In this document: piece by piece, positions 2,965-49,815 of the stretch
How positions within the stretch are numbered: the first letter of the stretch is position 1
Layout: each line of letters begins with the position of its first letter
DNA from: a virus
Lineage: Duplodnaviria; Caudoviricetes
IMG/VR virus record: IMGVR_UViG_2740892280_000002
Span: 15,512 to 79,511 of that record
Direction: 5' to 3' (one strand)
DNA length: 64,000 nt
Program-made: the position numbers and the translations under genes
Notes under the pieces: generated by a model
The model's input: only the letters and a program-made list of their open reading frames with translations
Database searches by the model: none
What the model was told of the DNA's origin: nothing

Positions 2965-2994
2965 CGGAGCCTTCTAGCGGTCGTCTTAATACGG

Positions 2995-3053
2995 AAAAAA
3001 TATCCTATCCTTGCCCGCTCCAACTAAGAAGGGCTAGGATGGGATATATTTTT
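2995..3053. repeat. 59-nt hairpin repeat, copy 1 (identical to 31493-31551)
   Basis: aaaaaatatcctatccttgccc-gctccaactaagaa-gggctaggatgggatatattttt; ~22-bp imperfect stem with A tract before and T tract after. Confidence 0.95.
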
Positions 3054-3400
3054 CCTCCTTGTATTTATCCGACCTAGCTCGGTCGCTTTCGCTTCCCGCC
3101 CTATCCGCTTCGGGTAAACCTACGCTATCGGGCGTGACCGAGCTAACGCAGAGTGCGCGCAAGAAGGCTCATCGAAAATAAAGGGTGCTAGGCAGGCGAG
3201 AAGCGTTTCTAGGCTATCGTTGTAGCCAAAAAGATAAGAACGGCTGCGGAGCACCTGTTATTTTTTGATATTGGGTATGATTTGGCATTCTCCGAGGGGT
3301 CAAAAGCGAGAGGGAGAGCGAATAGCGGCTACATCGGCCCTCTTGATAGGGTTTTCGAATTTGGCTACAAGCGGCCAACGCAACCGGAAAGGAGCAACAA

Positions 3401-4501
3401 GTGAAATTTGAAATCGGCAAGGAAAGCCTCTCGGCGGCAATCGGAATGATCGTCTCCGTCCTCGACAAGAAAGCGACCGTCCCGCTCTTCGGCATGGTCA
3501 ACATTGTGTCATACCTCCCGGAAGGGAACAGCGATCTCGGCAAGATCGAATTGTATGGGACGAATGGGATCTCGGAGATCCGGACAACGCTCGAAGCGAC
3601 GGTCGGCGAAGCTGGTCGGATTGCAGTCTCCGGGGAAGTCCTCGGAGGGATCGTCAAGAAGCTTCCGAGTAAACCGGTCAAGGTTGAGATTGACTCAAGT
3701 ATCATGAACGTCAAGTGTGGTCGCTCAAAGTTCAAGGTTACGACCTTGCCCGAGCTCGCTCCGAGCTTGATCGATATGAGCGATGCCGAAGTCGTCTTCA
3801 AGGCTCCCGAGGATTCGTTTATCCCGGCTCTCAAGATGGTTGCCTTCGCAATGTCCGACGACGCGGCGAGGCATTATCTCAATGGTGTCCATATCGATTT
3901 CGAGGACGGCAAGGCGAACCTTGTTGCAACGGACGGCCATCGTCTCGCTCGCAAGGTTATCGAGGTCGACGGCGTTCCTGGGAAAGCCTACACGCTCCCG
4001 CGCCCGGCGGTCGACTTCCTCTCGAAGTATGCCAACGGCGAGGTAACCGTCTCCCTTTCCGCGAACAAGATCACGGTCGGCTTCCTCGGCGGGGTCTATA
4101 CCTCGAATCTGATCGACGGGACCTTCCCCGACTATCGGCGGGTTATTCCGGAGACAACGAAAGAGGTCGCGGAGATCGACAAGGACGAACTCTCGCGGAC
4201 GATCTCTCTCGTTACGGCTACCTCGGAAGCCAAGACGCGGGCGGTCCGGCTCTCGCTTAGCGAGGGGACGCTCGTAACGAACGCGGCAGCGGGCGGGAAC
4301 GAAGGCAAGGACGAAATCGAAATCGACTATGCCGGCCCTCCGATTACTGTCGGCCTAAACGGGAAGTATCTCGCGGAGATCCTCTCCTCGGTTGAAACGC
4401 CCGGCGTCTATTTCGGCGTCAACGATCCGAGCACTCCGATCAAGATCATCCCGACAGATGACGCGGCCTTTACGGCGATCTGTATGCCGCTTCGAGTGTA
4501 G
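3401..4501 (+). CDS. dnaN: DNA polymerase III beta subunit (sliding clamp)
   Basis: 366 aa; RHYLNGV, VATDGHRLA, LIDGTFPDYRRVIP, GLNGKYL and C-terminal MPLRV typical of DnaN; GGAG RBS with GTG start. Confidence 0.95.
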   Translation: MKFEIGKESLSAAIGMIVSVLDKKATVPLFGMVNIVSYLPEGNSDLGKIELYGTNGISEIRTTLEATVGEAGRIAVSGEVLGGIVKKLPSKPVKVEIDSSIMNVKCGRSKFKVTTLPELAPSLIDMSDAEVVFKAPEDSFIPALKMVAFAMSDDAARHYLNGVHIDFEDGKANLVATDGHRLARKVIEVDGVPGKAYTLPRPAVDFLSKYANGEVTVSLSANKITVGFLGGVYTSNLIDGTFPDYRRVIPETTKEVAEIDKDELSRTISLVTATSEAKTRAVRLSLSEGTLVTNAAAGGNEGKDEIEIDYAGPPITVGLNGKYLAEILSSVETPGVYFGVNDPSTPIKIIPTDDAAFTAICMPLRV

Positions 4502-6487: not shown

Positions 6488-6667
6488 ATGATCTTGTTCG
6501 AATTCAATCGCTGGCGTCGTGCCATCGATCTCCGGAAGCGGCGGGCTGCTGCCGCGATCCGGGTTGTTGAGCATACGCGGGCTCAGCGGCATATCGCTGC
6601 TCAATCTGCATACGAATATTACGTCGAGCTCGCCGAGGAGCTTGATCAGGTAGAGGGGAGGGCCTGA
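6488..6667 (+). CDS. hypothetical protein (59 aa)
   Basis: GTAGCCAAAAGGAG RBS, ATG 6488, TGA overlapping next ATG. Confidence 0.55.
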   Translation: MILFEFNRWRRAIDLRKRRAAAAIRVVEHTRAQRHIAAQSAYEYYVELAEELDQVEGRA

Positions 6668-6837
6668 TGATCAAACGCCTCAAGCGATGGTTTAAGCGCC
6701 GGGAGCTAAAGGATCTTCTCCGGATGGCCGTCGTCTACAAGTTCCGGGCTCTCCTAAACGGCGATCACGCAACGGCTAAGCGCTACGATCAGATCGTAAG
6801 GAACATCCGACAAGAGCTCCGGGAACTCGAAGCATGA
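6667..6837 (+). CDS. hypothetical protein (56 aa)
   Basis: Translationally coupled on both sides (TGATG, ATGA). Confidence 0.55.
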   Translation: MIKRLKRWFKRRELKDLLRMAVVYKFRALLNGDHATAKRYDQIVRNIRQELRELEA

Positions 6838-7208
6838 ACGGCGTTCAATTCGTTTTCGTCTTCGGCTCTAACCTTGCTGGCCGGCACGGCAAGGGAGCCG
6901 CCCTCTACGCAAAGCAACACTTCGGCGCGGAATACGGCGTCGGGGTAGGGCGGACCGGCAACGCTTACGCTATCCCGACAAAGGATAGAGAGCTCCGGAC
7001 GCTCTCTCTTGAGGTTGTCGAGGAGGGTATCAAGGCGTTTATTGAATACGCCCGCGAGCGAGCTCGGGAAGCGCCCTATGAGATCTTCATCCTAACGCCT
7101 ATCGGTTGCGGGCTAGCGGGTCATGCTAAGGCGAATATCGCCGAGATCTTCAAGCGGCTCAGCTTGCCGGAAAACGTGCTCTTGTCGAATACCTGGGTTA
7201 CCGACTAG
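6834..7208 (+). CDS. A1S_2505-like phage non-structural protein
   Basis: FVFGSNLAGRHGKGAA, YAIPT, TPIGCGLAG signature recalled for this family. Confidence 0.7.
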   Translation: MNGVQFVFVFGSNLAGRHGKGAALYAKQHFGAEYGVGVGRTGNAYAIPTKDRELRTLSLEVVEEGIKAFIEYARERAREAPYEIFILTPIGCGLAGHAKANIAEIFKRLSLPENVLLSNTWVTD

Positions 7209-7437
7209 GCCCTGCCCAAATCCCGGCTCTCGCGAGCGGCTTAACGAAATGCTCGCGGTTGCCGGTCAACTTCTCGGCGAGGGCGTCGATAGCGTCTAGG
7301 ACGTCTTGAGCGGCGCGGTACTCAGGCGATCCGATCTTCGCCTCGGTAGAGACCTGGATCGCTCCCGCTCGCCCTTCCTTGAGCCTCCCTAGGGCTTGAT
7401 CGGTATGGATGACGCGGCGCTTTGATCGTTGCGACAT
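7198..7437 (-). CDS. small protein (79 aa) on the opposite strand, preceded by a LexA box
   Basis: MSQRSKRRVIHTD...IDALAEKLTGNREHF; AGAGAAG RBS; SOS box 21 nt upstream. Confidence 0.6.
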   Translation of the reverse strand: MSQRSKRRVIHTDQALGRLKEGRAGAIQVSTEAKIGSPEYRAAQDVLDAIDALAEKLTGNREHFVKPLARAGIWAGPSR

Positions 7438-7457
7438 GCTAGCTTCTCTCGATTTGT

Positions 7458-7472
7458 GTTCACTATCTGTTC
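7458..7472. promoter_or_regulatory. alphaproteobacterial LexA (SOS) box
   Basis: GTTC-actatct-GTTC is an exact match to GTTC-N7-GTTC, intergenic. Confidence 0.7.
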
Positions 7473-7507
7473 TAGTGCTCGCAGTCGCATATTTCAACAC
7501 TCAATCG

Positions 7508-7536
7508 CTTGACTGCCTCGGGTCGTTCAAGTAACC
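7508..7536 (+). promoter_or_regulatory. sigma70-type promoter CTTGAC-N17-GTAACC
   Basis: Perfect alphaproteobacterial -35 CTTGAC; -10 box weak; followed by GTAGCCAAAA and RBS. Confidence 0.45.
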
Positions 7537-7568
7537 AAAACGTAGCCAAAAACGGAAAAGGAGATACA

Positions 7569-20722: not shown

Positions 20723-20886
20723 TTCGTCTCTCCGTGTTTGAAAATCAACGTTATGCGACTTTTACGGCGAGTCCGTGTAGCTGTCCATAACCAAAATTAA
20801 AATTAGTGTTCATTTTTAGATTTGCGTTTTTGGCGACGAATCTTTAGACAAACCACCGGCAAACGGCCATGAGAGAAAGGAATCAA

Positions 20887-25500: not shown

Positions 25501-25625
25501 CTCGTTTCTCCGTGTTGTAGCCATTTACCGAAGATTCGGGACGGTTGTCCATACCCAAAAACAGAAAAACAGCGCGGGGAGCGCTGCTTCTCTAAAATTC
25601 AGCTTTTGGCTACAGTTGCCGCAAG

Positions 25626-27053: not shown

Positions 27054-27092
27054 GCGGATTTTTTGTCGGCTACCTGTAGCCAATAACTTAAG

Positions 27093-27119
27093 GAGCGGGC
27101 CGAGAGCTCGCTCTTTTTT
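27093..27119 (+). terminator. intrinsic terminator before portal gene
   Basis: gagcgggc/gctcgctc stem plus T6. Confidence 0.6.
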
Positions 27120-29954: not shown

Positions 29955-31088
29955 ATGGAAACCGCTAACGAGAGGATTGAAAACTCCGCGATCCGTCACG
30001 CGATCTTTTTGGAGCGCTACAAGACCGGGACGGTTCGGCGTATAATCGAGCTTCTCGGCGAGGTCGACGCGGATATCGTTTCTCAGATCCGAAGGCTTGA
30101 GGAGAGCTATACGCGGCGGCGGCTCGAAGCGGTTCTAAACTCAATCCGCGAGATCAATGCAAAGGCTTACCGGGAGCTCGCCGCGCGCCTTGGCGAAGAG
30201 CTCGAAGAGTTTGCAACCGGGGAGGCAGACTTCGCCCTCGGCAAGCTCTCCGAAGGGCTCCCGACCGAGCTCCGGACGGTTATCGAATTCGCTTCCCCGG
30301 CTACCGAAATCCTCTTCGTTTCCGCCGAAAATAAATTCGGAAACGCCCTAATCCAAGGGCGTGAACTTTCGTCTTGGTTTGATCAGATCGCGGACGCGGA
30401 TTTCGGTCGGTTTCAGCAAGCTCTACGCCTTGGTTTCGTCGAGGGTGAGAGTATCGACAAGATGGTTCGCCGGATTACCGGGACGCGCCCGCTCAACTTC
30501 AAGGATGGAGCGCGCGAGGTTAGCCGGAGACAGGTTCGCGCCTTGGTTCGGACCGCTATCAATACGGCCTCGACTAACGCCCGCGAGGAGGTTTACAAGG
30601 CCAACGAGCCCTTGATCAAAGGCGTCCGCTGGGTATCAACCCTCGACGGTCGGACTTCGGCGATTTGCAAGGCTCGCGACGGAAAGCTCTACTCTTTCGA
30701 CAAAGGGCCGAGGCCCCCGGCTCACTTCAATTGCCGGTCAACAACGACCCCGGTTCTCAAGTCCTGGCGCGAGCTAGGTTTTGACAAGGATGAACCTGCG
30801 CGCGGCGTTCGCCCGTTTATCCGGGATACCCGAAAGCTCAAGGATATTCCGAAGAGCGCTCGCGATCAGCTTGTCGGTCGGGTTCGCGCCGATGAGACTT
30901 ACGAGACCTGGCTCCGTAAGCAGCCGAAGGGATTTCAGGAGGAGGTCTTAGGTCCAACAAAAGCGCGGCTTTTCCGGCAAGGTCGACTAACCCTCGACAA
31001 GTTTGTCGACGAAGGAACGACCCGAGAATATACGCTCCAAGAACTTCGCCGAAGGTATCCTGACGCTTGGCGTGCTTCATTTGGTTAA
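29955..31088 (+). CDS. minor head protein (SPP1 gp7 / Mu F family)
   Basis: LVRTA, WVSTLDGRTS.ICK.RDG, PPAHFNCRST. Confidence 0.9.
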   Translation: METANERIENSAIRHAIFLERYKTGTVRRIIELLGEVDADIVSQIRRLEESYTRRRLEAVLNSIREINAKAYRELAARLGEELEEFATGEADFALGKLSEGLPTELRTVIEFASPATEILFVSAENKFGNALIQGRELSSWFDQIADADFGRFQQALRLGFVEGESIDKMVRRITGTRPLNFKDGAREVSRRQVRALVRTAINTASTNAREEVYKANEPLIKGVRWVSTLDGRTSAICKARDGKLYSFDKGPRPPAHFNCRSTTTPVLKSWRELGFDKDEPARGVRPFIRDTRKLKDIPKSARDQLVGRVRADETYETWLRKQPKGFQEEVLGPTKARLFRQGRLTLDKFVDEGTTREYTLQELRRRYPDAWRASFG

Positions 31089-31159
31089 GCTCGCCGAAGT
31101 CTGCTAGGTTTTATCTAGTTCGCTTCGTCTCGATGCGTAACTTTCTCTCCTCTCCGTCT

Positions 31160-31193
31160 AACCTCCTGTCGTTCGCGGCGGGAGGTTTTTTTT
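31160..31193 (+). terminator. intrinsic terminator
   Basis: GC stem with TTCG loop and T8 tail. Confidence 0.75.
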
Positions 31194-31231
31194 GGTTTAT
31201 ACACCTGACGGATCTCGCTATTTTCACCGCT

Positions 31232-31453
31232 ATGGACGCAGAAGAATTCAAAACGCGAGCAAAAGACGCAATGGGCGGGACCGGGTGGCAGAAACGCCTC
31301 GCGACGGCGCTCGGCGTATCCCTTCAAACGACTAGCCGATGGGCTACGGGTAAGCTCCCTGTCCCTATCTACGCGATTGCGGTTATCGAGCTACTCGAAG
31401 AGCTCAAGGCGCAACGCCTTCCGGTCCCGAGCCGGTTCCGTCGCCGAGACTGA
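31232..31453 (+). CDS. XRE-family HTH regulator
   Basis: QKRLATALGVSLQTTSRWATGK.PVP. Confidence 0.75.
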   Translation: MDAEEFKTRAKDAMGGTGWQKRLATALGVSLQTTSRWATGKLPVPIYAIAVIELLEELKAQRLPVPSRFRRRD

Positions 31454-31492
31454 GAAACTCCGTCGTCGTTCGTCGGACCGTCAATTCAATTA

Positions 31493-31551
31493 AAAAAATA
31501 TCCTATCCTTGCCCGCTCCAACTAAGAAGGGCTAGGATGGGATATATTTTT
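31493..31551. repeat. 59-nt hairpin repeat, copy 2 (identical to 2995-3053)
   Basis: Exact sequence identity read from both sites. Confidence 0.95.
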
Positions 31552-31869
31552 TACTATTTAATTTCCTTCCCTCCTCACCCGCGCCTTTGTCGCTACGGGT
31601 AAACCTTCGCTAGGCGCGGGCGAAGAGTGACCGACCGAACGACTTAGGACCCAATCGAAAACGTCACGAGGATTAATTTTTAGGGGTGCTAGGCAGGCGC
31701 TATTCAGAAATTGGCTACGACGATAGCTCCAACCCCTTAAGCGCTCTCTATGGCCGTTTATTTTGTATTCCTGAAATGTGTTGGTCTGGATTTGTCTCAA
31801 AGATTGATTTTTTGGCTACAAGTCGTTATCTGATCCCCGGCAACGACCCGAGGAAAGGAGATTTCGATT

Positions 31870-32841
31870 TTGAGCAATACCGTCATCACAACCGGCCATT
31901 TGGAGGATTACGCGAAAAGAGTCGGGGAACTTGACCGGGCAGGTTTTGAAGGGGAGAGCGATCAGGTTTTTGAAAAGCTACTTGTCACCGGTTGGATACC
32001 TCCCGTGCCGGCCAGGAACGCGGCGGAGACAATTACCGCTTTCAACTCGCTCTATTTCCTCTCGACTGGCAAGCGAATTCCCGATCTCCGAATCCCGGTA
32101 GCAAAGGGGCTTAGCTCCCGGCGGCAGGATCTCGTTTACCGTGAATTGATCCCCGAGCTAATTTCCGCAATCGAAGAGAACGCTTCGACCGGAACTCCGA
32201 TCACGCGCATTCTCAACAATCGCGGCCTAAAAACGCCGACCCGGTCGGTTCATTCTCAGCAATGGATGCCGGGGAAACTTCAGTACCATTTGAAGCAGGC
32301 GCTTTGCTACGACGACGACGGCGAGCTCGAAGAGTGCCTCGAAAATTACAACGTCCTCGCACAGGTTGAGGCGCGCGCCTCTGTCTCGAAGCGCGATATT
32401 CGGGAGGCGATCAAAGAGACGGTTGTCGAAATCTTCGAGGAAGTTTCGCTCGAAGGCGGCGGATGGCAGGACGCTTTGGAGCGCGTTCGCGAGTCCGGGG
32501 TCAAAAAAGTAAACGGCGAGGAGTGGTGTAGCCGGAGCCTTCTCGGCTTCGTTAACTGGCTCAAGGGCGAGGGCGTCAAGCTACCGAAACTCTATTCCAA
32601 GGCGAAAGGTGAAACCAAGGGCGATCAAAATATCCGGAAGAACCACAAGAACGTGATTTCGGCAATGGAGCGTGCCGGTATTCGTAAGGCCGATATTCTC
32701 GCCGACCTGAGGTCGAGGCAGGTCCCCTACCTCGGCGGTCGCGGTCGAGGGAAGGGCGTAAAACTCTGGTCGGAAAGCTACTGGGGACAATGGGAACGCG
32801 GCTGCAAAAAGCTCGGGCTCAAGATTCCAGATTTCAAATAA
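31870..32841 (+). CDS. unknown basic protein with recombinase-type DNA-binding motifs
   Basis: ITRILNNRGLKTP..W resembles the IA..LN..G..T..W motif of large serine recombinase DNA-binding domains; no catalytic domain seen; AAAGGAG RBS, TTG start. Confidence 0.45.
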   Translation: MSNTVITTGHLEDYAKRVGELDRAGFEGESDQVFEKLLVTGWIPPVPARNAAETITAFNSLYFLSTGKRIPDLRIPVAKGLSSRRQDLVYRELIPELISAIEENASTGTPITRILNNRGLKTPTRSVHSQQWMPGKLQYHLKQALCYDDDGELEECLENYNVLAQVEARASVSKRDIREAIKETVVEIFEEVSLEGGGWQDALERVRESGVKKVNGEEWCSRSLLGFVNWLKGEGVKLPKLYSKAKGETKGDQNIRKNHKNVISAMERAGIRKADILADLRSRQVPYLGGRGRGKGVKLWSESYWGQWERGCKKLGLKIPDFK

Positions 32842-33727: not shown

Positions 33728-33759
33728 TAAGCCGCTGATTTTTCAGCGGCTTATTTTTT
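33728..33759 (+). terminator. intrinsic terminator between scaffold and capsid genes
   Basis: taagccgctga-tttt-tcagcggctta perfect 11-bp stem plus T tract. Confidence 0.65.
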
Positions 33760-33908
33760 GTCCGCTGTATCCGTCAAGTAAATTTCAAATCAAGAGGAAC
33801 AGAAACCTTATTCCGGCCTGCGGCCTACTTTGTTTGTTCCATTCGATACATGTCGGTCCTGTGGATTTGGCAGCTAAGTGAAGTTGGCTATTATTGAAAG
33901 GAAATAAA

Positions 33909-34940: not shown

Positions 34941-34963
34941 TTGTAGCCAAAAACCGAAAAATT

Positions 34964-34988
34964 GGGCGGGGATTTCCCCGCCCTTTTT
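34964..34988 (+). terminator. intrinsic terminator after capsid gene
   Basis: gggcgggga/tccccgccc stem plus T5. Confidence 0.75.
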
Positions 34989-49780: not shown

Positions 49781-49815
49781 AAGCGGGGAAGGGGAAGCCT
49801 TTCCCGCTTTTTTTT
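49781..49815 (+). terminator. intrinsic terminator after tail tube gene
   Basis: 12-bp stem plus long T tract. Confidence 0.75.

Follow-up and report, generated by a model that had tools for sequence, protein, structure and literature searches.

The DNA analysed here, referred to as the window, is a stretch of 64,000 nt (bases 15512-79511 of a 79.5 kb IMG/VR provirus record, IMGVR_UViG_2740892280_000002), and identical DNA is found on a 2.0 Mb contig of assembly GCA_001403915.1. The host group of the prophage is alphaproteobacterial. To the left of the window, the same record carries an integrase gene and a gene for a repressor with two HTH_3 stretches and a Peptidase_S24 domain. Within the window are two gene-free gaps, each of about 420 bases, which are related to one another and are designated copy 1 (c1) and copy 2 (c2). 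Copy 2 is followed on its 3' side by a 323-aa gene and then by the scaffold and major capsid genes.

Both gaps have counterparts in one other phage. The clamp protein encoded next to copy 1 has only one close relative among 5.8 billion proteins, a 73% identical protein from an uncultured Roseibium genome, and the Roseibium contig holds a syntenic prophage with proteins that are 71–79% identical. This prophage carries both copies at the same junctions (designated R1 and R2). The four members are as follows, with window positions given for c1 and c2.

c1: 2965-3400, between the genes for a Dda-like helicase (1666-2964) and the phage DNA polymerase III beta clamp, dnaN (3401-4501)
c2: 31454-31869, with a Mu-F-like head morphogenesis gene (29955-31088) and a small helix-turn-helix (HTH) gene on its 5' side
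R1: L005:9512-10000, a 489-nt gap between the helicase and clamp genes of the Roseibium prophage
R2: L008:4726-5146, minus strand of the locus, a 421-nt gap from a 72-aa HTH gene to the gene before that for the scaffold

All four contain three hairpins (H1, H2 and H3) and a predicted promoter, in identical order. Further members were sought by DNA similarity, DNA patterns and protein-guided scans, and none were found in deposited phage genomes, IMG/VR, JGI metagenomes or GTDB species genomes. Deposited phages contained no similar DNA. Exact scans gave two unrelated chance matches for GGGTGCTAGGCAGGCG in IMG/VR, none for a 22-nt block of H2, and none for GCGGAGCACCTGTTATTTTT in GTDB genomes. 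Pattern scans with the motif described below returned single-copy chance matches only, a composite H3 pattern was absent from IMG/VR and matched one metagenome sequence, inside a transporter-like gene, and in the protein-guided searches the Roseibium prophage was the only close relative. With four members in two phages, covariation statistics are limited.

No reading frame conserved among the copies runs through either gap. Small conserved proteins were considered and ruled out, as the peptide matches occur in several frames and on both strands, the pattern expected where conservation is at the DNA level. No tRNA or tmRNA was found. The Rfam search advised in an earlier note on this DNA gave no family match: across the whole window, none of the Rfam 15 covariance models reached its gathering score, and at E values up to 10 there were only sub-threshold generic hairpin matches on H1 (e.g., microRNA precursor models, 13–23 bits against cut-offs of 42–108). 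The element lies outside every curated RNA family.

The similarity between c1 and c2 is strongest at H1, where 59 nt (2995-3053 and 31493-31551) are 100% identical, the sole such pair in the 79.5 kb record by repeat and own-genome searches. In a two-copy alignment, further shared blocks follow in the same order. The block CGCTTCGGGTAAACCTACGCTA (3106-3127) matches CGCTACGGGTAAACCTTCGCTA (31591-31612) with a T..A to A..T swap, GGGTGCTAGGCAGGCG is present at 3183-3198 and 31684-31699 (offsets of 188 and 191 nt), TTGGCTACAAG is present at 3362-3372 and 31812-31822, and a TTATTTT tract and a GGCTA..TAGC hairpin occur in both gaps. The identical 59 nt and the shared blocks were described in the earlier note and stand, with two amendments. 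The GGCTA..TAGC hairpin and TTGGCTACAAG are present, but both are merely copies of a genome-wide motif, and the collinearity that was described does not extend to the H3 part (3172-3268 and 31674-31768), which aligns better after one copy is reverse-complemented.

Conservation between the orthologous gaps c1 and R1 is uneven. The coding DNA is 75–78% identical, and the values within the gap are:

H1: 47%
H2: 47%
H2-H3 linker: 52%
3212-3290: 79%
3240-3268: 90%

Predicted terminators and promoters at the ends of the gaps

The left end of each gap is occupied by H1, which begins 30–40 nt past the upstream stop codon.

H1, copy 1: 2995-3053, a stem of about 22 bp with a 14-nt loop, placed between an A-run (left) and a T-run (right)
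H1, copy 2: 31493-31551, the same 59-nt hairpin, directly 3' of the small HTH gene (stop codon at 31453)

Compared with shuffled sequences, H1 has z scores of -3.1 to -7.4, and no other local fold is as stable in any of the four copies. A- and T-runs flank it on both sides. The minimum free energy of the window copies is -33.3 kcal/mol on the plus strand (z -6.7) and -32.1 kcal/mol on the minus strand (z -5.7), while the values for R1 are -55.4 and -55.9 kcal/mol (z about -7.3), and those for R2 are -40.8 and -48.3 kcal/mol. A stable, GC-containing stem-loop with a T-run on each strand is the signature of a bidirectional intrinsic terminator, and H1 has these features, with tails of TATTTTT(C/T) on the plus strand and TATTTTTT on the minus strand. 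The copy 1 hairpin is read as a predicted terminator of this kind, closing the operon of the Dda-like helicase. The two H1 sequences of this phage are identical and those of the Roseibium phage are similar (with the loop ACTACGTA and a bulged A in common), but H1 of one phage is unrelated to H1 of the other, a distribution that fits gene conversion or concerted evolution in each genome. A promoter candidate inside H1 (TTGCCC-18-TAGGAT) was discarded, its score being within the chance range.

At the right end of each gap is a predicted sigma70-type promoter on the plus strand.

c1, dnaN operon: 3343-3400, plus strand, -35 TTGATA (3343-3348), 17-nt spacer, -10 TACAAG (3366-3371)
c2, scaffold/capsid operon: 31804-31869, plus strand, -35 TTGATT (31804-31809), -10 TATCTG (31827-31832)
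R1: TTGACG-17-TACAAG, at the position orthologous to that of c1
R2: TTGAAA-17-TATCTC, at the position orthologous to that of c2

These sites lie 29–51 nt upstream of the start codons. In three of the four gaps, the sigma70-like site has the top plus-strand score, and in the fourth it is second-best. The hexamers are conserved between orthologues while the spacers differ, and ATTGA and GTTATCT are kept between c2 and R2. For dnaN, the ribosome-binding site is AGGAG (3390-3394) and the start codon is GTG (3401); after copy 2 they are AAGGAG (31855-31860) and TTG (31870). No convincing plus-strand promoter was found between H1 and H2, and the best predictions are 3' of H3. Inspection by eye for sigma54, LexA (GAAC-N7-GAAC), DnaA and CtrA boxes gave near-misses only, which were not common to all copies.

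A genome-wide motif and the proposed control cassette

Both predicted promoters are overlain by a short sequence that is spread throughout the phage genome. This motif, GTAGCCAA, has the core GTAGCC(A/T)A and occurs in 38 copies in the 79.5 kb record. Its fuller form, (Y)GTAGCCAAAA-n-C-n-GAA, is two-part, consisting of a 10-mer and then, after variable bases, a C and GAA. Nearly all copies are at gene junctions and are oriented with the genes, and many run straight into the ribosome-binding site; for about 30 phage genes, the GUAGCCAA core adjoins the ribosome-binding site. In the Roseibium prophage, the motif recurs at a like density (0.5–0.8 copies per kb). The possibility that it is itself a promoter was ruled out. 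Against such a role, several copies are placed between a stop codon and an immediately following terminator, including those at 34943 (before 34964-34983), 49757 (before 49783-49807), 27076 (before 27090-27116) and, on the minus strand, 25606 (25573-25622). The motif is seen immediately before terminators and once inside a terminator loop (the terminator at G000 6643-6671 is among these cases), and the same pairing of motif and terminator recurs in H3.

Reversed copies of the motif sit in the predicted promoters of both gaps. In c1, TTTGGCTACAAG (3361-3372) overlies the spacer and the -10 hexamer, and in c2 the 17-nt spacer is itself a reversed copy, TTTTGGCTACAAGTCGT (31810-31826). The geometry of the copy 2 promoter is also seen elsewhere in both phages, in the divergent gap before a CmoA-like gene (20723-20868; L007:13940-14107). 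This holds two degenerate, inverted motif copies, CCATAACCAAAAT and TTGGCGACGA, the second of which is in the spacer of a predicted promoter, TTGCGT-17-TAGACA.

A candidate for a protein that reads the motif is encoded to the left of the window:

Prophage repressor candidate: L132:6726-7541 (= G000 6726-7541), minus strand, 271 aa, two HTH_3 domains and Peptidase_S24

Two DNA-reading heads would suit the asymmetric, two-part form of GTAGCCAAAA-n-C-n-GAA. A precedent is the operator-stoperator network of mycobacteriophage L5 and Cluster A phages (PMC9283540; PMC6550527), in which a monomeric repressor reads an asymmetric site with two domains (PMC9283540). The motif described here resembles the L5 sites in being asymmetric, in having tens of copies, located at promoters and in short gaps between genes, and in being oriented with transcription, and the two HTH domains of the prophage repressor parallel the two-domain reading. 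There are also differences. The motif sequence and the host are not those of L5, the repressor has an S24 self-cleavage domain and its binding to the motif is putative, and the motif occurs in both orientations and inside the loop of a terminator-like hairpin, which is not described for L5. The likeness concerns the motif within the gaps and not the gaps as a whole.

Taken as a whole, each gap may be a copy of a composite control cassette at an operon boundary, acting partly as RNA and partly as DNA, and we consider the chances for this reading to be about even. H1, judged a terminator from its hairpin and runs, would stop transcription from the upstream genes and any arriving from the opposite side. 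Read-through would be caught by H3, a further, independently oriented hairpin with a T-run, whose loop holds a copy of the GTAGCCAA motif. The downstream operon (dnaN onwards, or scaffold and capsid onwards) would then restart from its own sigma70-type promoter. As another motif copy covers the spacer or the -10 of each restart promoter, a motif-binding protein would keep both operons shut in the lysogen, and the best candidate for this silencer is the prophage repressor described above. H2 would be a conserved hairpin to which no role is assigned, and gene conversion would keep the two cassettes alike within each genome. We rank the cassette first, as both ends have clear, ordinary roles that are conserved in position and the motif copies fit a repressor network. 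Of the suggestions in the earlier note, it is the fallback of twin regulatory sites that fits best, with a predicted terminator at the left end and, at the right end, a promoter-like sequence that is overlapped by the motif and conserved in the orthologues.

The middle of the gaps: hairpins H2 and H3

Between the two ends are a GC-rich hairpin, H2, and an inverted repeat, H3. The window copies of H2 are:

H2, copy 1: 3076-3144, two-tier stem AGCTCGGTCGC/GTGACCGAGCT plus CGCCC/GGGCG, with the shared 22-nt block (3106-3127) on top
H2, copy 2: 31569-31629, stem CCCGCGCCT/AGGCGCGGG extended by CTC.TC/GA.GAG, with the shared block (31591-31612) on top

A hairpin is present at the H2 position in all four members, always with unrelated stem sequences and with no T-run after it. 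The Roseibium stems are CCTTGCG/CGCAAGG with TCCGG/CCGGA, and ATCTCT/AGAGAT with GCT.CCGG/CCGG.AGC. Fold z scores are -2.55 (plus) and -2.51 (minus) for copy 1 and -3.07 (plus) and -4.21 (minus) for copy 2; across the four copies, those on the plus strand are -2.6, -3.1, -3.5 and -1.4, with similar values on the minus strand. Automatic structural alignment of H2 gave nothing usable, the stems being unrelated. In the window copies, the top of the hairpin shares 20 of 22 nt, and T3110-A3122 becomes A-T in copy 2, a swap that is consistent with a closing base pair. The folds of both window copies confirm the claim of the earlier note that the middle block sits in hairpins with differing stems. 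Its wider statement, that structure is kept while sequence changes, holds to the extent that the H2 stems differ in all four copies, but strict two-sided covariation comes down to the single T-A/A-T swap. The loops of the two Roseibium copies differ as well (UUAA and GCGUGG), so no common recognition surface is seen.

Paired structured elements near the heads of operons are known from phage antitermination. Phage lambda has the twin elements nutL and nutR, the counterparts of putL and putR of HK022. The two put RNAs are each about 70 nt long, with two defined stem-loops and shared sequence similarity (PMC9378689). H2, with or without H3, could by analogy be a cis-acting, plus-strand leader RNA that renders RNA polymerase resistant to terminators. 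The gaps likewise provide two similar structured elements per genome at the heads of two operons, alike in structure and sequence, the H2 structure is kept while its stems change, and each is followed by the terminator-like H3, with further strong terminators in the late region. The put RNAs, however, are 3' of known promoters, whereas here none was found between H1 and H2 and H1 should stop transcripts from upstream. The predicted operon promoters are 3' of both H2 and H3, so the operon transcripts would not contain these hairpins. In addition, several late genes seem to have promoters of their own, the conserved loops and structure of the put type are not seen when R1 and R2 are compared, and no match to a sequence or an Rfam model was obtained. 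A leader RNA of this type is very unlikely.

H3 has a direction of its own. Its window copies are:

H3, copy 1: 3183-3268, sense strand minus, inverted repeat GGGTGCTAGGCAGGCG (3183-3198) / CGGCTGCGGAGCACCT (3241-3256)
H3, copy 2: 31684-31767, sense strand plus, 5' arm GGGTGCTAGGCAGGCGCT (31684-31701), 3' arm AGCGCTCTCTA (31740-31750), T-run (31757-31764)

The general plan is a pair of arms, TAGGCAGGCG and a CGCCTGC-like sequence, around 43–47 nt that include a motif copy, and then a T-run. Copy 1 encloses an extended motif copy, GGCTATCGTTGTAGCCAAAAAGATAAG (3213-3239), and has an A-run (3174-3182) to its left and a T-run (3258-3266) to its right, while copy 2 holds a reversed motif copy, TTGGCTACGACGATAGCT (31711-31728). 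Terminator features (stem plus T-run) are found on both strands of copy 1 and only on the plus strand of copy 2.

H3 is inverted between copy 1 and copy 2, a feature that is new here. Aligned collinearly, the four H3 sequences have 62% mean column identity and 31 invariant columns; with those of copy 1 reverse-complemented, the figures rise to 70% and 42, including the run TTGGCTAC. All four cross comparisons of copy 1 with copy 2 give higher pairwise z scores when inverted (6.9, 8.7, 8.1 and 6.1) than when collinear (4.9, 3.4, 4.3 and 4.9), and orthologous pairs score higher in the same orientation. Read in this way, the module begins with the 5' arm, followed after exactly 11 nt in all four copies by TTGGCTAC, then (N)NCGATAGC and 12–13 nt, and it ends with the 3' arm CGCCTGCCTA, 5–6 nt and TTTATTTT, with a T-run following in the module orientation in all four. 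Recombination between the hairpin's own arms, flipping the interior only, could give the same picture.

RNAalifold predicts three helices in H3, with 54 of 58 cells forming standard pairs compared with 31–52% when the partners are slid. In the four-copy alignment, no pair in these helices has changes on both sides. The pairs that are not Watson-Crick comprise 8 G·U on the module sense strand and 1 on the other strand. Of 15 pairs, 14, 14, 13 and 13 are canonical on the sense strand in the four copies, against 14, 13, 10 and 10 on the other; in copy 2, 13 are kept on the plus strand, four of them as G·U, and 10 on the minus strand. As the G·U bias favours the sense strand, it points to a hairpin at the RNA level in the module orientation, which is plus-strand for copy 2 and minus-strand for copy 1. 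Nearly every wobble pair, however, belongs to copy 2, in which sense strand and gene strand coincide. Since the stems of c1 and R1 pair almost entirely by Watson-Crick rules and have A- and T-runs on each side, it is copy 2 that supplies the strand evidence. Thermodynamically, H3 is conspicuous in copy 1 only: its fold z scores are -3.75 (plus) and -4.38 (minus) for c1, -1.8 and -2.8 for R1, and about 0 for c2 and R2 (+0.3 and -0.2).

The best-conserved stretch of the gap, 3212-3290, covers the H3 interior with one arm and the T-run, and the 20 nt beyond. Its minus strand can be read as a possible promoter, ATGCCA/CTGCCA-17-AAAAAT, leading into the initial half of the hairpin, and its plus strand as the 3' arm, the T-run and a further degenerate motif copy. 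Both readings fit.

These properties raise the question of whether H3 is a small RNA gene of about 85–95 nt, whose transcript (minus-strand for copy 1, plus-strand for copy 2) would be a single long hairpin that ends in a U-run, with H1, H2 and the promoter as neighbours and not parts of the RNA. In its upper part, such an RNA would display UUGGCUAC, the complement of the GUAGCCAA core, and it would pair with the messages of the roughly 30 genes next to which this core is found, chaperoned by the phage's own ProQ/FinO protein, to tune their translation or stability. It would explain the inverted orientation, the T-run, the fixed 11-nt spacing, the pairing and its wobble bias, and the conserved flank, where the possible copy 1 promoter is conserved between orthologues. 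It would also provide a partner for a ProQ/FinO-domain protein that the phage encodes (26234-26617, minus strand; Pfam PF04352, E 8e-18) and that is kept in the Roseibium prophage (L007:19773-20147, minus strand). A parallel is the antisense RNA FinP with its chaperone FinO, along with other small RNAs that depend on ProQ/FinO proteins. Such proteins have been reported to bind terminator-hairpin 3' ends with an A-rich 5' flank and a U-tail, and both H1 and H3 are predicted hairpins of the terminator type with these flanks. Unlike FinP, H3 has no specific antisense target defined, and the ProQ gene is 5 kb from copy 2 and 23 kb from copy 1. Other observations also count against a small RNA. Folding of H3 in c2 and R2 is no better than in shuffled sequences, the copy 2 hairpin has no convincing promoter upstream and that of copy 1 is weakly predicted, and UUGGCUAC is partly buried in the apical stem. 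There is no complementarity beyond 8–10 nt, and the two-part form of the motif suits a protein better than RNA pairing. As noted above, the strand evidence comes from one copy only, and inversion of the loop by recombination between the arms would need no RNA gene. On this evidence, an H3 small RNA is doubtful, although it ranks next after the control cassette. The larger proposal is unlikely, namely that a two-copy H3 RNA, aided by ProQ/FinO, pairs UUGGCUAC with GUAGCCAA at some thirty genes, so that what looks like an operator network would in part be an RNA-RNA regulon that times the whole lytic programme.

A longer transcript was the principal suggestion of the earlier note, which envisaged an ncRNA family, probably on the minus strand and ending at the H1 hairpin. 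The idea of a family is borne out insofar as both gaps are non-coding, structured and conserved as a family. A single minus-strand RNA of about 300 nt, running from near the start of the downstream gene through H3 and H2 to H1, is highly improbable. It could make use of the H1 T-run, which is present on the minus strand too, H2 is more stable on that strand in the window copies (-34.4 against -29.8, and -36.2 against -28.4), and the reversed motif copies at the right end would be co-oriented with it. However, the strand preferences of the hairpins disagree between the copies and H3 is inverted between them. In copy 1, the minus-strand T-run of H3 itself would end the RNA early, and in copy 2, H3 is poor on the minus strand (10/15 pairs) and no conserved minus-strand promoter is present. 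Orthologue conservation is concentrated in 3212-3290, with most of the length only about 50% conserved. The strand named in the note is matched in part, in that an RNA from H3 alone would be minus-strand in copy 1.

At the other extreme, the middle of the gap (H2 and much of H3) could be a functionless relic of an old terminator-promoter duplication, its copies being kept alike by gene conversion. Identity between the copies is perfect in H1 and patchy elsewhere, H1 is alike within each phage and unlike between phages, and over roughly half of the gap the identity between orthologues does not exceed about 50%. On the other hand, all four copies retain a hairpin at the H2 position despite unrelated stems, the changes in H3 preserve wobble pairs, and 3212-3290 is as similar to its orthologue as is coding DNA. 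A relic is thus quite unlikely.

Several points also weigh against the control cassette. The promoter scores (6.0–8.8 bits) are within the chance range, and a stricter consensus scan listed none of these sites, so they remain predictions, as is every promoter and terminator named here. Between H1 and H3, no plus-strand promoter that could feed H3 was found. The repressor is a putative reader of the motif. The cassette gives H2 no role, leaves the separate orientation of H3 and its strand-specific wobble pairs unexplained, and does not account for the highest orthologue conservation being in the H3 interior and one flank.

Origin of the two copies and related systems

The surroundings of copy 2 suggest where the cassette arose. 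The open reading frame called at 31067-31453 (128 aa) is too long, as a strong terminator (31160-31187) lies inside it, and the true small HTH gene runs from an ATG at 31232 to the stop codon at 31453. Its 73-aa product matches a YdaS/XRE-type HTH weakly and shares 83% identity with the 72-aa protein of the Roseibium prophage. With the terminator at 31160-31187 before it and H1 after it, the gene sits between two terminators, and since it has no clear ribosome-binding site, its message may be leaderless. The gene 3' of copy 2 (31870-32841, 323 aa) has no homologue but itself among the 5.8 billion proteins, and its product is only 25% identical to the 367-aa protein at the equivalent place in the Roseibium prophage.

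Strong terminators at 27090, 31160, 33728 and 34964 divide the late region. The major capsid gene is flanked by predicted bidirectional terminators (33728-33753 and 34964-34983), and a promoter-like sequence, TTGGCA-16-TATTAT (33867-33894; 10/12 matches), ends exactly at its start codon. Because of these late terminators and the promoter-like site at the capsid start, the phage seems to be built of short promoter-to-terminator units, and the two cassettes would be boundaries of this kind.

More distant relatives, with MuF about 51% identical, likewise have a small HTH gene homologue at the MuF-scaffold junction, and the longest inverted repeat of each locus is there too (L136:7684-7756 and L137:7199-7269). 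The stems of these two repeats are unrelated and they have the AT-rich loop ATAGATATA in common. In L137, there is no gap before the clamp gene. Since the distant relatives keep the HTH gene and a long hairpin at the MuF-scaffold junction, and L137 is without the gap before dnaN, the cassette at this junction looks ancestral and the copy before dnaN a later duplicate.

This history also bears on a role in replication, the other function raised in the earlier note. Replication origins or specific priming sites, with hairpins acting on single-stranded DNA, might be considered from the position of copy 1 inside the replication module, between helicase and sliding clamp, and from the long, perfect inverted repeats and AT-rich tracts in the gaps. 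Yet copy 2 belongs to the head-assembly module, it is the MuF-scaffold junction that seems to be the ancestral site, and nothing specific to origins was found in the gaps, which on inspection show no iteron array and no convincing DnaA, CtrA or LexA boxes. Twin replication sites are therefore extremely improbable.

For the control cassette, the closest known kind is the PeSL (promoter-early stem-loop) of the T4-type phages RB49 and phi1 (Arbiol et al. 2010, PMC2839356). There too, small, repeated, non-coding cassettes with a sigma70-like promoter and a stem-loop terminator are placed at module boundaries, and the copies recombine with one another in both systems. Both units in the window have this layout of a repeated sigma70-like promoter and stem-loop at module boundaries, and the likeness is one of layout, sequence relatedness not being expected. 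The differences from the PeSL cassettes are that here there are only two copies per genome, of about 420 nt each, that H2 and H3 are additional hairpins, that a genome-wide motif is embedded in several places, and that the terminator comes first and the promoter last. The host and phage type are unrelated, and no mini-circles or module shuffling are seen here.

The family is rare, with two prophages among all collections searched, and is of specialist interest for now. The one part that could raise the interest of the finding is the H3 small RNA, since its transcription would link a phage-encoded RNA chaperone to a genome-wide set of targets; to our knowledge, no such link has been described. 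If the cassette reading is true, a terminator-operator-promoter unit has been copied to a second operon boundary of a temperate phage, placing the replication operon and the head operon under one switch, with the copies kept alike by gene conversion. This would be a case of compact regulatory rewiring by cassette duplication outside the T4-like phages.

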